Positions 1,130 through 23,581 of a DNA stretch of 30,696 bases are shown in pieces. The stretch is from the IMG/VR virus record IMGVR_UViG_3300025786_000006, positions 1 to 30,696 of that record; one strand, given 5' to 3'. The first letter of the stretch is position 1; each line of letters starts with the position of its first letter. The position numbers were made by a program, and so were the translations under genes. This stretch comes from a virus (Duplodnaviria > Caudoviricetes). Under the pieces are notes generated by a model that did no database searches, was not told the origin of the DNA, and saw nothing but the letters and a program-made list of their open reading frames with translations.

Positions 1130-2260
1130 CTAACATGCGATATAAGTCATTTTCGTTTGATCTTTGTACCAGTCTCCAACCAAAGAAGTATTGTATGAAG
1201 CAATCGTAAAATTGTCGTATCCGACACTAATTGCAGCCCCGCCATCCAGATAAAGAGACATATTAGAAACATTCGATGAATCATAAAAACGAACAAACAA
1301 GCCTGAACCGGCATGGAATGAGACTGCAAAATTCCATACGTCACCATTTGTCTTGGTTACGACTGTTTTTAATGGCGATGAATACAGTGCATTTTTCGCT
1401 GTCGTGGAACCATTGATTGCTGAAATAGCAGTTGCTGAGCCCTTAATTGCAGTGAGAGCGGCACTACTTGCCGCCACTGTAGTCATTGCTGTTGAATTAG
1501 CGGCTACTGCCGCCATGGCCGTGGCACTCGCAACCATCGCATTCAGAGCTGCTGTACTGGCAATCATTGCTGCAAAAGCTGTTGAGTTAGCGGTTATTGC
1601 AGTCATAGCCGTGGCACTCGCAACCATCGCATTCAGGGCTGCTGTACTGGCAATCATTGCTGCAAAAGCTGTTGAGTTAGCGGTTATTGCAGTCATAGCC
1701 GTGGCACTCGCAACCATCGCATTCAGAGCTGCTGTACTGGCAATCATTGCTGCAAAAGCTGTTGAGTTAGCGGTTATTGCAGTCATGGCCGTGGCACTCG
1801 CAACCATCGCATTCAGGGCTGCTGTACTGGCTATCATTGCCGCAAAAGCTGAACTATTTGAGATCAGGGCACTAAATGCAGTTGCCTCACCTAAGACAGT
1901 GGTTATCGCGGTTGGATTGGCGGCTAAAATAGCCATTGCAGAAGAACTTCCCAACACTGTGTTATAGGGTGTTGAGCTGTAGAGCAGAGAGCGGAAAGCG
2001 TTCGTGTCCGACAAAAGACGATCAAAGGCCTCTTTATTGCTCAAATCCCCCAGCCAGGTATTCAGTTGAGCGCTTGTAAGCGTCTCAAGCAGACGCAGAG
2101 AAGAAGGATTCAGCATGTCAATTTCAGCCACTGAAGCAGCCATTTTGAACAAAGCACCTTTTACCAAAAGTTCATTGTCTGTGGCTGTAGATGGCGTGAA
2201 TGAGCTTATACGCCCTTCAATTTCTGTTAAAAAACCATTGCGAAATTCTGGAAACCCCAT
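1130..2260 (-). CDS. Putative tail fibre/receptor-binding protein with Ala-rich 10/30-aa repeats
   Basis: Position after baseplate/fibre genes. Repeated STAFAAMIASTAALNAMVASATAMTAITAN. Beta-rich aromatic C-terminal ~80 aa. Confidence 0.65.
   Translation of the reverse strand: MGFPEFRNGFLTEIEGRISSFTPSTATDNELLVKGALFKMAASVAEIDMLNPSSLRLLETLTSAQLNTWLGDLSNKEAFDRLLSDTNAFRSLLYSSTPYNTVLGSSSAMAILAANPTAITTVLGEATAFSALISNSSAFAAMIASTAALNAMVASATAMTAITANSTAFAAMIASTAALNAMVASATAMTAITANSTAFAAMIASTAALNAMVASATAMTAITANSTAFAAMIASTAALNAMVASATAMAAVAANSTAMTTVAASSAALTAIKGSATAISAINGSTTAKNALYSSPLKTVVTKTNGDVWNFAVSFHAGSGLFVRFYDSSNVSNMSLYLDGGAAISVGYDNFTIASYNTSLVGDWYKDQTKMTYIAC
1487..1851. repeat. Near-perfect 90-bp tandem repeat (3 full copies plus partial flanking copies)
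   Basis: GTGGCACTCGCAACCATCGCATTCAG starts at 1521, 1611, 1701 and 1791. Copies differ by 1-3 nt. Confidence 0.97.
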
Positions 2261-19000: not shown

Positions 19001-19375
19001 TCACGCCTGGATTCCCCGTGCCCTAGCTTGCTGGGCCGGGGAGGAAGGCGTGTCAGGTCGTAAGACCTGAGCTAACCACCTATCAGACGTCAATACCTTG
19101 ATTTTCGATGTAGCGCTTGATGGTTTCGATGGTTGCCCCGCCAGTGGTCAGAATGCAATAGCTGTCTGTCCAAAACAACGGCTTCCAGTAAAAGCGTTTG
19201 AGGTGTTCTGCATACGCTTGGCGTACCATTCGGCTGCTGACAGATTTAAAGTTATTGACCAGTTTGGAGGGTTGTACTTTGGGGTTGGTGGTAAACAGAA
19301 TATGCACATGGTCGGGCTCTCCGCCAAACTCGATAAGCTCTGAACCCCACTTTTTGCACAGCTCTGAAAACAGTG
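19001..19375 (-). mobile_element. IS200/IS605-family relic: one end with hairpins plus truncated tnpA
   Basis: Imperfect hairpin 19002-19052 (CACGCC/GGCGTG, TCCCC/GGGGA, GCCC/GGGC) and hairpin TCAGGTC-GTAA-GACCTGA 19053-19070, next to the 3' end of tnpA. No tnpB. Confidence 0.85.
19083..19375 (-). pseudogene. tnpA: 5'-truncated Y1 HUH transposase
   Basis: Frame reads LFSELCKKWGSELIEFGGEPDHVHILF...FWTDSY...TIKRYIENQ (HUH and catalytic Y present). Upstream the frame hits TGA with no start codon, and the N-terminal YHxVxxxKYR segment is missing. Confidence 0.88.
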
Positions 19376-19419
19376 GGTCATTGACACTGAAAGATGTATT
19401 TCAGGCTTTGCCTGAAACA

Positions 19420-19545
19420 AATTTAGCGAGACGCTGTAGAATCGATTTTAAGGCCGGTGTGGTTGTGGTTTAGTATCAACATACCACTGATGGGTGTAAA
19501 ACAAAATTTAAACAGCTTTCAAATGGGTTTAAATGTTATTTGTAT
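19420..19545. other. Candidate strong gyrase site-like phased sequence
   Basis: T/A tracts at 19496, 19507, 19518, 19528 and 19539 (10-11 bp period). Lies between G and I, where the Mu SGS lies. Confidence 0.4.
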
Positions 19546-19629: not shown

Positions 19630-20508
19630 ATGTACTACAGACGTAAATTACTTTTGAACTTAATCCAGACTTTTGGCAACGCTCTGACATCCAGACAAGT
19701 TCAAAAGCTTATGTTCATTTTATCTCCAAAATTAAACAAACCTCATTATGACTTCGTTCCGCATCGGTTTGGTGCATATTCATTCGTCATAAAGTCAGAT
19801 TTACTTAACCTAGAAAAGAACGGGCTATTATACAAATCAGCGCAACCATCTGTGTGGAAGTTAATCACACATGAGATCCCTGAACTAACACCAGTTGACC
19901 GCCGTTTGATGAACGATCTCGCGATTAATTTTGCTAACCTGCAAGAATCAGAACTCATTAAACACACTTACAATGAGTATCCAGAATATGCTGTAAACAG
20001 TGAAATAGCCTCACAACTACTGACCGAGCCTGAGGTAAAAAAAATACAAGCATTTAAACCAAAGTCTGATTTATCTGCTATTTACACTATCGGTTATGAG
20101 GGTTTGTCGTTAGACGCATTTGTACAAATTCTTTTAAAGAATGACATCCAACATTTATGCGATGTAAGAAAAAATGCCTACAGTATGAAATTTGGCTTTA
20201 AAAAATCTGAGCTTTGCAAAACACTTGAGTCAGTTTCGATTACGTATAGTCACCATCCAGAATTGGGAATTGAATCTGAAAAAAGGAAAATTGTTCAAGA
20301 AACTGGAGATTGGAATCAGCTCTTCAATGAATACGAAGCCACAATAAGTAATAACTCGACCAATTTATTACCGCCAATATTGCACTTATTTGAAAACAAA
20401 AAACGGATAGCATTAATGTGCTTTGAGCATAAATCCTGTAATTGTCATCGTGGAAGATTAATAAACGTTATTCAAGCGAATAAGGAGATTAATGTAATAA
20501 ATTTATGA
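19630..20508 (+). CDS. DUF488-family protein with N-terminal SocA/Panacea-like winged-helix domain
   Basis: C-half IYTIGYEG, LCDVRKNAYSMKFGF, HHPELG, LMCFEHKSCNCHR (DUF488). N-half QVQKLMFIL...YDFVPHRFGAYS. GAGG RBS, AT-rich. Confidence 0.82.
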   Translation: MYYRRKLLLNLIQTFGNALTSRQVQKLMFILSPKLNKPHYDFVPHRFGAYSFVIKSDLLNLEKNGLLYKSAQPSVWKLITHEIPELTPVDRRLMNDLAINFANLQESELIKHTYNEYPEYAVNSEIASQLLTEPEVKKIQAFKPKSDLSAIYTIGYEGLSLDAFVQILLKNDIQHLCDVRKNAYSMKFGFKKSELCKTLESVSITYSHHPELGIESEKRKIVQETGDWNQLFNEYEATISNNSTNLLPPILHLFENKKRIALMCFEHKSCNCHRGRLINVIQANKEINVINL

Positions 20509-21401
20509 CTGACTACTTTGACCCAAACCCTCAGGATTTAAAGGTTTTAATTACAGTAAAAACATATCCAACATTGTCCACGAAGTATGCGGAAACAGTT
20601 TGTACTGCTGGCATAACAGATGATGGGAAATGGATAAGGCTCTATCCTATCCCTTTTAGGCAAATCGAAGATTTTGATAAACGTTATCCAAAATATTCAT
20701 GGGTTGACGTAAGAGCGATACGGCGAGATACGAAGAAAGATTTCCGGGTCGAAAGCTTTCAGCCGATAGATATTAACCAAATAAAAGTAAGCCCCAAAAT
20801 ACCAACAGCTAAAGACCCTGGATGGTCTAAACGACGTGCGTTGACTATTGATAAAGTGCGAATTTACGATAGCTTAGACGAATTGATTGCTGATTCTAAG
20901 CGAGACAGTAACCCAGTCCCCATTTCTTTGGCAATGTTTAAGCCTACTGAAATTTTAGATTTTACCTGGAAACCTGATGACAGAACATGGAATAAAGGGA
21001 AAGTCTATGAACTTGAAAATCAACTTTCTCTCTTTGATGATGTTGGAGGCAATTTAAAATCAAGCCCATTTAAAGTTGTGGACAAGCTACCTTTTACTTT
21101 TAAGTACAAGTTTAAGGATTCCAAAGGTAAGATTAGTAATCTGATTATTACTGACTGGGAAACAGGCATGCTGTATTGGAAGAGTCGAAAGAGCACGCAG
21201 ACAGATGAAGAAGCGTGCCAAAAGGTCAAACAGAGATACTTTGATGATTTTATAAAAAAAGATATTTACTTTTACATGGGTACAGTATTTAACAATCATC
21301 TGCTTAACCGCCCAAACCCATTTTCAATTATAGGGGTTTTTTATCCTCCATTTTTACCTGAAGGCTTTACTAAACAACTGAATATTTTTGAAGATATTTA
21401 A
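20505..21401 (+). CDS. Uncharacterised DUF488-partner protein
   Basis: ATGA-coupled to DUF488 gene. VKTYP...ETVCTAG...WIRLYP, DWE and FYMGT motifs. QLSLF and QLNIF peptides. Confidence 0.8.
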   Translation: MTDYFDPNPQDLKVLITVKTYPTLSTKYAETVCTAGITDDGKWIRLYPIPFRQIEDFDKRYPKYSWVDVRAIRRDTKKDFRVESFQPIDINQIKVSPKIPTAKDPGWSKRRALTIDKVRIYDSLDELIADSKRDSNPVPISLAMFKPTEILDFTWKPDDRTWNKGKVYELENQLSLFDDVGGNLKSSPFKVVDKLPFTFKYKFKDSKGKISNLIITDWETGMLYWKSRKSTQTDEEACQKVKQRYFDDFIKKDIYFYMGTVFNNHLLNRPNPFSIIGVFYPPFLPEGFTKQLNIFEDI

Positions 21402-21412
21402 AAAATCAAGCT

Positions 21413-21943
21413 TCACGCCTTCAAGTATTTTTCAATTGTCTGCAAAATAACAGATCTGTCTTCATCCGAAAAACCAAGATAGGGCCGACCTGGAATATTA
21501 CCCCAGGGAATCGGAGCCCCGCGCTTGGTTTTACCAAAAGCTCCCTGGGATGCTCCGAAATGCTGCACACGGGAATAAATCATGCCAGAGCCGATCTTCA
21601 GCTCTTGTGAAGTGGCCCGGTAATGAATGGTTCCAGAGAGGGATTTGCTTTCGCCAATCAGGGGCTTTTTCCCAGAAGCGCGGCCTTGGCCTTTCTTGGT
21701 CAGACCGCCTTTCTTTTTAAAGTTCCCCTTGGTCTTGTTAAGCATCTTCAGAAGTGTACTGTCTTTGTTGGCTGCCCACTTTTGGCCGTCTGGGCCTGTG
21801 CTGGTTTCAAAGCGCTTCTTGACACTTTCGAGCATCTCTTCGCCGATCTCTTTCATAACAGGCCGAAGATTGCCTGACTTTTCCTTCAATCGGAGCAGGG
21901 TATTCAGGACGGTTGAGTCATCCAGCTTGATATCGAACTGCAT
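21413..21943 (-). CDS. Mu gpG-like virion morphogenesis protein
   Basis: LRPVMKEIGE...RFETSTGPDGQKW...YSRVQHFG...IPGRPYLGFS. Confidence 0.93.
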   Translation of the reverse strand: MQFDIKLDDSTVLNTLLRLKEKSGNLRPVMKEIGEEMLESVKKRFETSTGPDGQKWAANKDSTLLKMLNKTKGNFKKKGGLTKKGQGRASGKKPLIGESKSLSGTIHYRATSQELKIGSGMIYSRVQHFGASQGAFGKTKRGAPIPWGNIPGRPYLGFSDEDRSVILQTIEKYLKA

Positions 21944-22167
21944 CAGAAAAAGTCCTCACCCTTAATGACATTGAGCTGAAGATCAAACTTTTCATACTGG
22001 GCGATCACATGAATTCCGACACCTTCGATTTCCTGACCAATCAGCCAGAGATTGGGATTTGTAAAAGAGAGAAAGGCTTCGATATTGTAATTGCCAGTTT
22101 GGCGCTGGAAATGATAAACCAGCTCAGTGACTTCATCGGGAAAGAGCCTCTGTTCTATATCAGGCAT
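21943..22167 (-). CDS. 74-aa acidic hypothetical protein, candidate MuF-toxin immunity
   Basis: Directly downstream of MuF. TGATG-coupled to gpG. Weak RBS. Confidence 0.55.
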   Translation of the reverse strand: MPDIEQRLFPDEVTELVYHFQRQTGNYNIEAFLSFTNPNLWLIGQEIEGVGIHVIAQYEKFDLQLNVIKGEDFF

Positions 22168-22181
22168 GGGGAGCCCTGTTG

Positions 22182-22187
22182 TATAAT
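22182..22187 (+). promoter_or_regulatory. Consensus -10 (TATAAT) facing antisense into the MuF 3' end
   Basis: Perfect TATAAT 5 nt before the stem at 22193. No recognisable -35. Confidence 0.45.
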
Positions 22188-22192
22188 AAATG

Positions 22193-22276
22193 TAGCAGGG
22201 GATTACTGCGAAATCGCTTTCGGACGTATGGAGAAGGCAAGTGAAATTGCATGAATCCGTCGCAGACCTCCTGCTA
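22193..22276 (+). ncRNA. Candidate ~84-nt multi-stem structured RNA
   Basis: TAGCAGGGG (22193-22201) pairs with CTCCTGCTA (22268-22276). CTGCGA (22206-11) pairs with TCGCAG (22260-65). Inner GCAA-GTGAAA-TTGC hairpin and a TTTCGG loop. G-U wobbles work only on +. Confidence 0.55.
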
Positions 22277-23581
22277 AGACTTTCTCTGATAAATGAAAAA
22301 ACTTTTCATCGAGAGCATTCGCTTTTTCCCCAAAACCTCAAATAGAACAACATAGGTTTGATTCCCAATTGCTTTTTTATAGGCAAGAAAAGGTGTGCCT
22401 CCACCAATATCTGTTGCTCCCCTGTTTTCAATAATGTCAGGTGAGTTTAATACTTCGGGAATTATCTTGAAATCATCGGGTTCAACAGGCTTTTGGCTAT
22501 TCACCATTTCACCAACCACATCTTGCCCCGCAACACCATGTCTATCACGAATGTGATTCAATGCAGACTTGTTCAAGGCAAAATCAAAGCCTTTAATATC
22601 CACATTTTTCATCTCAAATGGATTCTCTATTGGCGGCTTACCGTGCTTGATGCGTTTTCTATTTCTAGCAGCCAGCTCTTCTGCTGTTTCCTTAAATGTC
22701 CAGCCACGGATCATCTGAGCATCTTTGGATTCTATCAGCCCCAATGTTTGAAATTCTTGGTAATTAGGACGTTTTTCAAATACTCGCTTTGCGTATTGTC
22801 TGGCAGCATCTGCCGTCGAAGGTAAATCACGATATGAACGGGCAAACTGGTCTTTAATACCTTCTGGCAAATTTTCCATATAGGCTTTGACAATTGTGGT
22901 ATCCCATTGCACCGTTTTTTCTCCCATGGCGCGAACTGTATCACTGACGGTATTCCCAGGCATGTACCCCCAGCCTTTGTCTATGCCGAAGGGTTCACCT
23001 GTTTTGGGGTCAATTTCCACATCAGGGGCCTGGCCAATGTCTGAGGGATTATTCTTGCCTTTGACCCGACACTGACAGCCCCAGCCATTGGGCGGGTAGT
23101 GGGCGTTCCAGAAGGGATCATCAGCAGGGAGCACCAAACCATCCCAGGCTTGGTGTTGTTTGCGAGGGTGAGCCACGGCTTTGCTGTGAATGTATTCCCA
23201 GTGCGTGAAGCCTGCCTCACGCAGTTGAGCCAGACGGCCAGCTGAATAACTGGTCAGCATATTGGTCTGGTAAATGACCTTTGTGCGCCAGTTAAACTCC
23301 CCGCGATAATCCCAGCCATGCTTGGCAGCAATGCTTCTGAAATCTTTGCGAAAGGCATCCAGACTTGTTCCCTGACTGATCGCTTTATCTACAGAGGCAG
23401 CCAGGTCAGCGAGTAAATCTGCTTTGGCAGCGCCTGCCACGATAAAGCCCCGATCATGTGCCTCTTTCTGCATGTCTGTCCAGCGTTCTGTGGGTACTTG
23501 ATTGCCCAACTTCTGCCGGAAGAAAGCGACTTGCTCCTGGAAAGGCTCTCGAAAGACGCCTGAGATAGATGGTTCAGGCAT
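22274..23581 (-). CDS. MuF (gp30) minor head protein with C-terminal putative BECR/PBECR-type nuclease domain
   Basis: N-part PFQEQVAFFRQK, IYQTNMLTSYSAGR, HPRKQHQAWDG, YPPNGWGCQCRV (MuF). C-part SALNHIRDRHG...DDFKIIPEVLNSPD...YVVLFEV...LSMKSFF. Confidence 0.85.
   Translation of the reverse strand: MPEPSISGVFREPFQEQVAFFRQKLGNQVPTERWTDMQKEAHDRGFIVAGAAKADLLADLAASVDKAISQGTSLDAFRKDFRSIAAKHGWDYRGEFNWRTKVIYQTNMLTSYSAGRLAQLREAGFTHWEYIHSKAVAHPRKQHQAWDGLVLPADDPFWNAHYPPNGWGCQCRVKGKNNPSDIGQAPDVEIDPKTGEPFGIDKGWGYMPGNTVSDTVRAMGEKTVQWDTTIVKAYMENLPEGIKDQFARSYRDLPSTADAARQYAKRVFEKRPNYQEFQTLGLIESKDAQMIRGWTFKETAEELAARNRKRIKHGKPPIENPFEMKNVDIKGFDFALNKSALNHIRDRHGVAGQDVVGEMVNSQKPVEPDDFKIIPEVLNSPDIIENRGATDIGGGTPFLAYKKAIGNQTYVVLFEVLGKKRMLSMKSFFIYQRKS

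Follow-up and report, generated by a model that had tools for sequence, protein, structure and literature searches.

The 30,696-nt stretch of viral DNA analyzed here (the window) carries on its minus strand the late region of a Mu-like prophage, in which genes for the terminase, portal, MuF minor head protein, gpG, protease, capsid, and tail were identified with Pfam. The MuF protein displays the layout of MuF polymorphic toxins, with a MuF domain, a variable C-terminal toxin domain, and a location in the head module. PBECR3 (PF18812) was the only toxin family of Pfam matched by this protein (38.3 bits for a cut-off of 30). In addition to a profile score above the cut-off, the domain contains the helix histidine and the C-terminal Ser/Thr residue of the family, the latter being a serine in the last strand, and its residues His343 and His348 are the two histidines kept in relatives. 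The folds nearest to a structure model of the domain (pLDDT 83) were those of BrnT (Z 7.9, rmsd 2.9, 75 aligned residues), the RelE family, and colicin D (Z 5.2). The fold likeness is middling, and Foldseek returned no match at E≤0.001 with the model. The PBECR3 domain is a predicted RNase. Word-based protein searches returned only the proteins of the window itself. The MuF and gpG genes are separated by a 106-nt gap (22168–22273) and a 74-aa ORF (Table 1). Between the gpG and protease genes, the plus strand carries a low-GC two-gene cassette (19630–21401) encoding a DUF488 protein and a phrog_25907 protein, which is inserted against the direction of the late operon and looks like defence cargo. 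A fragment of an IS200-like transposase gene (19083–19420, minus strand) immediately precedes the protease gene.

Table 1. Features of the MuF locus and of the predicted RNA gene.
Feature	Position	Strand	Remarks
MuF minor head protein with C-terminal PBECR3 domain	22274–23581	−	435 aa; Phage_Mu_F, E 5.5e-15; PBECR3, E 1.4e-9; phrog_220
PBECR3 predicted RNase domain (aa 326–433)	22283–22606	−	His343 and His348 present
74-aa ORF, rival candidate for protein immunity	21943–22167	−	no Pfam or PHROG family
Weak −35 hexamer, ATCAGG	22159–22164	+	best-scoring at 17-nt spacing; overlaps start of 74-aa ORF
−10 box TATAAT, predicted RNA promoter	22182–22187	+	8.7 bits; start site expected near 22193–22195
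Predicted RNA gene, 84 nt	22193–22276	+	closed by 9-bp outer stem P1 (22193–22201/22268–22276), one G-U
Conserved three-way junction	22206–22265	+	P2, 22206–22211/22260–22265, 6 bp; junction G 22259
Core hairpin P3, family CGY-NNNGG-RCG-U	22215–22227	+	extra C at 22217 in the window copy
Third arm	22230–22258	+	P4, 22230–22232/22256–22258; purine-rich internal loop; P5; GCAU motif, 22249–22252
P5 hairpin, GCAA/TTGC	22237–22240/22247–22250	+	inside third arm

The initial annotation of the window had proposed that the gap downstream from the MuF gene specifies a structured antisense RNA with its own −10 box. Direct reading of the sequence located the outer stem, the inner 6-bp stem, the GCAA/TTGC hairpin, and the 22215–22227 element where they had been claimed, with the complement of the MuF TAG codon (22274–22276) in the 3' arm of the outer stem and TATAAT five bases ahead of it on the plus strand. 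Helix P4 had been missed, and its presence makes the fold a three-way junction. Two G-U pairs had been assigned to the plus strand; the pair at 22200/22269 belongs to the structure of the family, and the second belongs to a single-sequence helix that is not kept by relatives. The likeness to a T-loop noted on the gene strand is probably incidental since the wobble pairs of the family fit the plus strand. In the single-sequence ensemble, pair probabilities were 0.67–1.0 for P1 and 0.01–0.21 for P3, the latter hairpin being weakly formed in the window copy. Fold z-scores computed with tight ends were −2.68 on the plus strand and −2.65 on the minus strand, and −0.94 for the interval initially flagged. 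The absence of a convincing −35 box, already raised as a caveat, was borne out: the poor hexamer ATCAGG was the best available, it lowered the score from 8.7 bits for the −10 box alone to 7.0 bits for the pair, and the ATCAGG/TATAAT promoter did not appear in the list produced by a promoter scan of the window. TATAAT is not enriched in the window (5 occurrences for 7.05 expected), and neither Rfam nor ARAGORN returned a match on it. No terminator-like site was found before position 23049 downstream from the window copy, as was the case for four close relatives, and the transcript may consequently run into the toxin gene. Taken alone, the window locus is weak evidence; it is conservation that lifts the element above chance.

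The same 5.65-Mb genome contains a second prophage with a PBECR3 domain that is 34% identical to that of the window and is followed by the same element. In this second copy, the outer stem is kept through a double change from A-U to G-C, and the same −10 box is present at the same distance. Between the two prophages, identity is 83% for the N-terminal part of MuF, 82% for gpG, 62% for the 74-aa ORF, and 34% for the toxin domains. A search of the entire genome with the covariance model described below led to two matches only, each behind one of its two PBECR3 genes. No peptide is kept over the element since the frames differ between the two prophages: a candidate leader peptide of 30 residues (from 22252, minus strand) was discarded because its counterpart in the second prophage, a frame of 32 aa, is unrelated to it. 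A hairpin over the −10 box (22175–22201) was also rejected, as it is not apparent in the second prophage.

PBECR3-like domains were collected from viral contigs, genomes, and pattern hits (one of the steps kept 80 of 102 domains) with peptide patterns that favoured histidine-bearing sequences, and the set was cut to 108 domains less than 80% identical to one another. Two of these, both with the core, were left out because less than 150 nt was available downstream. The core CGY-NNNGG-RCG was searched for on the antisense strand, in an interval running from 20 nt before to 150 nt after the end of the domain. The strict core was present behind 90 of the 106 distinct domains, 3 or 4 of which had entered the set through the RNA pattern itself, for 2 on the opposite strand, 0 to 9 in ten control windows, and a mean of 3.8 in shuffled sequences. 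At less than 50% identity, the core was found for 59 of 70 cluster representatives. The record titles of the domain set include Proteobacteria, Bacteroidota, Verrucomicrobiota, Bacillota, Nitrospirota, and others, and the carriers include the cultured phages Rhodobacter RC1 and Rhizobium RHph_N28_2. Forty-two copies are preceded by a stop codon, and another 43 are embedded in ORFs that continue through them, all three frames being represented (34, 8, and 1). This distribution indicates a constraint on bases rather than on a peptide. The initial annotation had the RNA locked onto the stop codon of the nuclease gene; it is rather tied to the end of the nuclease domain, as 45 of the 54 PBECR3 domains located within longer proteins also have the RNA. 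One locus (L096) has two copies, one for each of its domains. Tandem RNA pairs were limited to a few loci (L028, L117, and L287/L298), and the window contains a single model match. In the portal-fusion ORF of phage phiE058 (L256:1832–1895), a C replaces the second conserved G in the loop of the RNA copy.

Among the 16 domains that lack the strict core, most are followed by variant RNAs, and three, linked to Spirochaetes, have elements that look unrelated. Reverse promoters of at least 7.8 bits were found in a wider window for 14 of the 16, and three matched the covariance model at E<0.001. Five PBECR3 loci with strong reverse promoters (L050, L115, L168, L198, and L116) have degenerate, shorter RNAs lacking the strict core. 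Locus L150 has kept both histidines, yet has neither RNA nor promoter in the slot. Short DNA patterns used on their own mostly retrieved chance matches: 1 of 12 was real in one search, and 4 of 31 viral matches had an upstream domain in another.

The covariance model was built on 16 relatives from which the window sequence was excluded; it matched positions 22206–22265 of the plus strand of the window with a score of 33.8 bits (E 3.8e-10). The fold of the family consists of a closing helix P2, the core hairpin P3, an unpaired U, and a P4 arm. This arm comprises an internal loop rich in purines, a hairpin that varies, and a GCAY motif. The C-G and G-C pairs of P3 are invariant in the 82 aligned matches. 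These 82 matches, from 100 sources, formed an alignment fitted to the structure model, in which 91% of the cells were paired and the covariation was 0.655, versus 0.186 for shuffled and 0.08–0.14 for slid alignments. Against a tree-aware null, applied to the best 70 of the 82 rows, all six P2 pairs were significant (E<0.001), thereby supplying the covariation among homologues that the initial annotation had named as a check. The nine top-ranked column pairs were all located within the structure, no extra covarying pair was detected beyond it, and the GG of the loop, a candidate partner in a pseudoknot, was invariant. P4 and the variable pair of P3 ranked after P2, with E values of 0.08–0.4 that are not significant alone and are suggestive only. 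When arms were exchanged between RNAs, the native combination exceeded the median pairing of the swaps in 73 of 79 cases and surpassed every one of the 12 swaps in 42. Plain MAFFT alignment of the untrimmed RNAs left the 3' arm unaligned.

Eleven loci, mostly Mu-like, harbor a circularly permuted form (type B), with a loop capping P2 and an open arm. The permuted layout was the better-scoring one for 8 of the 11 type B copies; among the 79 type A copies, 73 scored better with the standard layout, the two groups having been assigned by eye before scoring. Type B copies overlap the last codons of the gene, and their domains were not monophyletic in a tree rooted at the midpoint. The existence of circular permutation implies that the fold matters more than the order of its parts along the mRNA. 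Searching Rfam with type A and type B elements in 40 loci produced no match at the gathering threshold, the sole hit being to a different element present in L024. The Rfam comparison proposed in the initial annotation thus revealed no family for the window or for the type A and type B elements of these 40 loci.

Three types of signals were used to assign the strand. The inner (variable) pair of the core, read on the antisense strand in 87 copies, is U-A in 66, C-G in 11, U-G in 10, and C-A in none. The G-U reading was better in 33 of 79 copies and the A-C reading in 7, with a tie in 39. Antisense −35/−10 pairs of at least 9 bits, scored with sigma-70 weight matrices, were located upstream from the RNA in 45 of the 90 loci, as compared to 4 to 7 in six control windows, a family-wide enrichment that bears on the conservation of the reverse −10 box, another check that had been suggested. 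Terminator-like hairpins were present downstream from the RNA in 48 of the 90 loci, for 5 to 14 in controls, some of the U-runs being contributed by lysine codons at the end of the domain. Fold z-scores do not pick the strand, as a lower whole-fold value was obtained for the antisense strand in just 27 of the 79 copies. From the wobble pairs, promoters, and terminators, we infer that the RNA is made from the strand opposite the gene, from its own promoter. Together, conservation, covariation, and the enrichment of promoters and terminators agree with the initial proposal of a structured RNA opposite the gene, with its own predicted promoter and linked to PBECR3. As judged from sequence comparisons, the RNA family is real, widespread, and coupled to PBECR3 domains.

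The slot occupied by the RNA varied with the nuclease tip of MuF. In a set of 35 MuF loci, 13 encode a short MuF that lacks the slot and abuts gpG, 15 have a tip and a gap containing a reverse −10-like hexamer (from a list of hexamers chosen after viewing these loci), five have a small ORF instead, and one is truncated. The loci with a small ORF behind the MuF tip and no RNA slot are L011, L017, L031, L033, and L013; Pfam returned no match for the tips of L011 and L013. No gap or slot is present in L008, in which both histidines are lost, and genes F and G overlap by 4 nt in phage Mu, the domain of which was called inactive (Iyer et al., PMC5512222); the link between an inactive domain and the lack of RNA rests on these two cases. 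PBECR2, MuF_C-like, and unclassified tips are followed by different sequences in the same slot. One of these (L024:3306–3382, minus strand) scored as a tRNA-Arg(TCG) on the antisense strand, and tRNA-like genes are found in antisense orientation directly behind a different family of MuF tips in L024, L034, and L018 (the L024 and L034 tips are 47% identical). Distinct structured elements with a reverse −10 box were also observed behind other BECR-like domains in four groups of loci (L010, L015, and L025; L014 and L016; L056–L058 and L060; L059 and L063), each of which may represent a separate RNA family.

Three loci harbor a stacked second element with its own −10 box (L018:3328–3432, L014:3477–3593, and L122:1648–1717). 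These second elements match the first element of other loci (90% over 105 nt, 85% over 117 nt, and 76% over 70 nt, respectively), and the cognate nuclease tip of each is absent from the locus in which it is stacked. By analogy, the stacked non-cognate RNAs resemble orphan immunity arrays.

The RNA was also found without the nuclease. Model searches in two sets of 151 genomes led to matches in 19 and 16 genomes. Among 36 new matches, about 16 appeared genuine by eye and about 20 chance-like; of the former, seven adjoin a domain match, four a broken domain tail, and five neither. Many orphan copies are located behind broken domain tails or in proteins that have lost the domain, and may thus be remnants. 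Four clostridial genomes, which are drafts and possibly incomplete, contain RNA copies equipped with a TTGACA-type promoter, and PF18812 was not matched in any of them. In one of these genomes (L077), two divergent promoter-bearing copies (1169–1220, minus strand, and 1420–1472, plus strand) lie beside a CRISPR-like array of 36-bp repeats. The copies without a domain suggest that the RNAs outlive their nuclease.

An RNA antitoxin that binds the PBECR3 nuclease domain is, in our opinion, the best reading of these data and a rather probable one. The initial annotation had considered both direct binding and antisense action for the neutralization of the nuclease. The occurrence of family-specific RNAs in the slot, the stacking of non-cognate RNAs, and the loss of the slot if the domain is absent or devoid of its histidines make the antitoxin part of this proposal likelier, and direct binding fits better than antisense action. 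An antidote recognized by the protein is favoured by the conservation of bases by family, permutation, replacements, stacking, and absence if the domain is missing or inactive, none of which is needed for antisense pairing. The RNA would be transcribed by the host polymerase independently of the late operon, and would therefore already be present in the lysogen, before MuF is made. Recognition by the domain would involve the internal loop rich in purines as well as the invariant hairpin of the core, and binding would block the predicted RNase, probably by means of a substrate decoy, a step for which the case is weaker than for the antitoxin reading as such. The RNA would thereby shield the producing cell during head assembly and the lysogens from the same nuclease delivered by virions. 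The domain and its RNA would move as one cassette into MuF, portal, or polyvalent proteins, each domain bringing its own antidote. Concerning the decoy, the core read as a 7-nt anticodon loop always contains G36-G37, and UCG in 53 of 87 copies. Weighing against the decoy are the shortness of the stem, the pairing of positions 32 and 38, and the fact that the GG was demanded by the regular expression itself. In its favour, colicin D cuts tRNA-Arg. More generally, the colicin-like BECR enzymes are described as mostly cutting tRNA (10.64898/2026.08.28.747851). A broader reading, which we regard as plausible with odds slightly against it, is that RNA immunity is general for BECR virion toxins, each family having its own antisense-encoded decoy and non-cognate decoys being collected in phage or host arrays, in the same manner as orphan immunity proteins are collected by bacteria. 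The decoy would be a tRNA cloverleaf in one family and, for PBECR3, a three-way junction with the Arg-UCG loop mentioned above.

Four other explanations were considered. The RNA could act as in type I systems, by pairing with the late mRNA in its 3' region, so as to silence leaky synthesis of the nuclease in the lysogen, the fold merely stabilizing the molecule. The convergent layout is that of RatA/txpA and SR4/bsrG, the transcripts of the window copy and its four close relatives can reach the coding region for lack of a terminator, and type B copies overlap the last codons. However, an RNA antisense in cis needs no conserved sequence, whereas the bases of the core are kept across many phyla, survive circular permutation, and change with the nuclease family. 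Furthermore, non-cognate and orphan copies have no target in cis, 48 of 90 RNAs have a predicted terminator at the edge of the domain, and silencing would offer no protection during late expression or against a virion-delivered protein, making this explanation unlikely. Alternatively, the RNA might assist the domain instead of inhibiting it, as a cofactor, a guide, or cargo packaged along with it in the head, which would account for the presence of one RNA per domain, even in polyvalent proteins (45 of 54) and twice in L096, and for its absence if the domain is inactive. This possibility appears decidedly unlikely, as the persistence of RNAs without a domain is easier to reconcile with an antidote than with a cofactor, host-type promoters would drive synthesis of the RNA outside the late phase, and no variable guide segment stands out.

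The element could also be a self-cleaving or processing RNA, or a structure of the mRNA strand, unrelated to neutralization of the nuclease. Three-way junctions that combine invariant bases and circular permutation are indeed typical of small ribozymes, and whole-fold z-scores fit either strand. We hold this to be very improbable, considering that no Rfam ribozyme matched the window or the 40 loci, that wobble pairs, promoters, and terminators all indicate the antisense strand, and that the element is strictly tied to one nuclease family with no peptide kept over it. Finally, the 74-aa ORF might encode the immunity protein at the window locus, the RNA being redundant or vestigial there. Small ORFs are reported behind 89.4% of 191 MuF toxin genes (PMC5576092), the 74-aa ORF is found behind both PBECR3 genes of the genome and is more diverged than the flanking MuF N-terminal part and gpG, and the window RNA has an odd extra base in its core in addition to its weak −35 hexamer. 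Against this, the ORF was detected at only two distinct places among 301 loci, which are those of the two prophage copies, and the three nearest PBECR3 domains in the tree are followed by the RNA alone. The ORF is also far more conserved than the two toxins that its product would have to recognize. An Atlas search with this ORF provided only leads under 0.9. On balance, immunity conferred by the ORF at this locus is a minor and very improbable alternative.

The RNA family is apparently undescribed so far. No description of a PBECR-linked RNA was found in the literature, mostly at the level of titles and abstracts, and supplementary lists of RNA candidates could hold the motif. The main text of an RNA-mining preprint from 2026 contains neither BECR nor MuF (10.64898/2026.09.22.753630). 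The survival of the cells producing PBECR nucleases is not addressed in the sections of PMC5512222 consulted, and no PBECR domain was tied to an immunity protein in the present analysis. If the antidote function is correct, toxins for which protein immunity has been described until now would be countered by RNA, and the range of RNA antitoxins, known from type III modules acting inside cells, would come to include toxins delivered by virions. It would also imply the existence of a new, widespread RNA family with natural circular permutation and of RNA genes hidden antisense within coding sequences. The cognate RNA gives direct access to PBECR nucleases for cloning, purification, and assays, and the conserved loop predicts the recognition target. 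The idea is testable because the cultured phages RC1 and RHph_N28_2 carry the RNA.

In the convergent type I antitoxin systems RatA/txpA and SR4/bsrG, the antitoxin promoter is directed towards the toxin gene from its 3' side, and an RNA acting by base pairing controls a small membrane peptide. The convergent promoter and the complementarity to the toxin mRNA are also found here. In contrast, the toxin is a 435-aa MuF protein with a nuclease domain rather than a small hydrophobic peptide, bases of the tertiary type are kept with the nuclease family, and some copies have no target in cis. As far as the comparison of sequences goes, conservation argues against pairing with the mRNA or its decay as the main role.

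In type III toxin-antitoxin systems (ToxIN, AbiQ, TenpIN, and CptIN) and in AbiF/RCd22, an RNase toxin is associated with a structured non-coding RNA proposed to neutralize it by direct binding (PMC12373285), an organization similar to that envisaged for PBECR3. According to the same source, the type III RNA is encoded upstream, in tandem repeats, and is co-transcribed with the toxin gene, from which it is separated by a terminator. The PBECR3-linked element is usually single, downstream, and on the opposite strand, with its own predicted promoter. Its putative target, a domain with a BECR fold within a virion protein, is distinct from ToxN, TenpN, CptN, and AbiF, and the Rfam search revealed no match of the element to type III antitoxin RNAs. 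Thus, the RNA would work like a type III antitoxin and differs from that family in layout, repeats, and toxin. PBECR domains, reported to occur in as many as 26% of polyvalent proteins (PMC5512222), include PBECR3, grouped with the colicin-like BECR RNases; the consulted text of the two corresponding papers proposes targets and describes neither self-protection nor an associated RNA (PMC5512222; 10.64898/2026.08.28.747851). MuF polymorphic toxins (PMC5576092) share with the window locus the MuF N-terminus, the variable tip, the location in the head module, and a protective element behind the tip that short MuF proteins lack. As stated in the initial annotation, the immunity described for these toxins is provided by small proteins, antisense or non-coding elements being unmentioned in the main text of that study (PMC5576092), whereas the MuF slot described here contains RNA genes, which are sometimes stacked.
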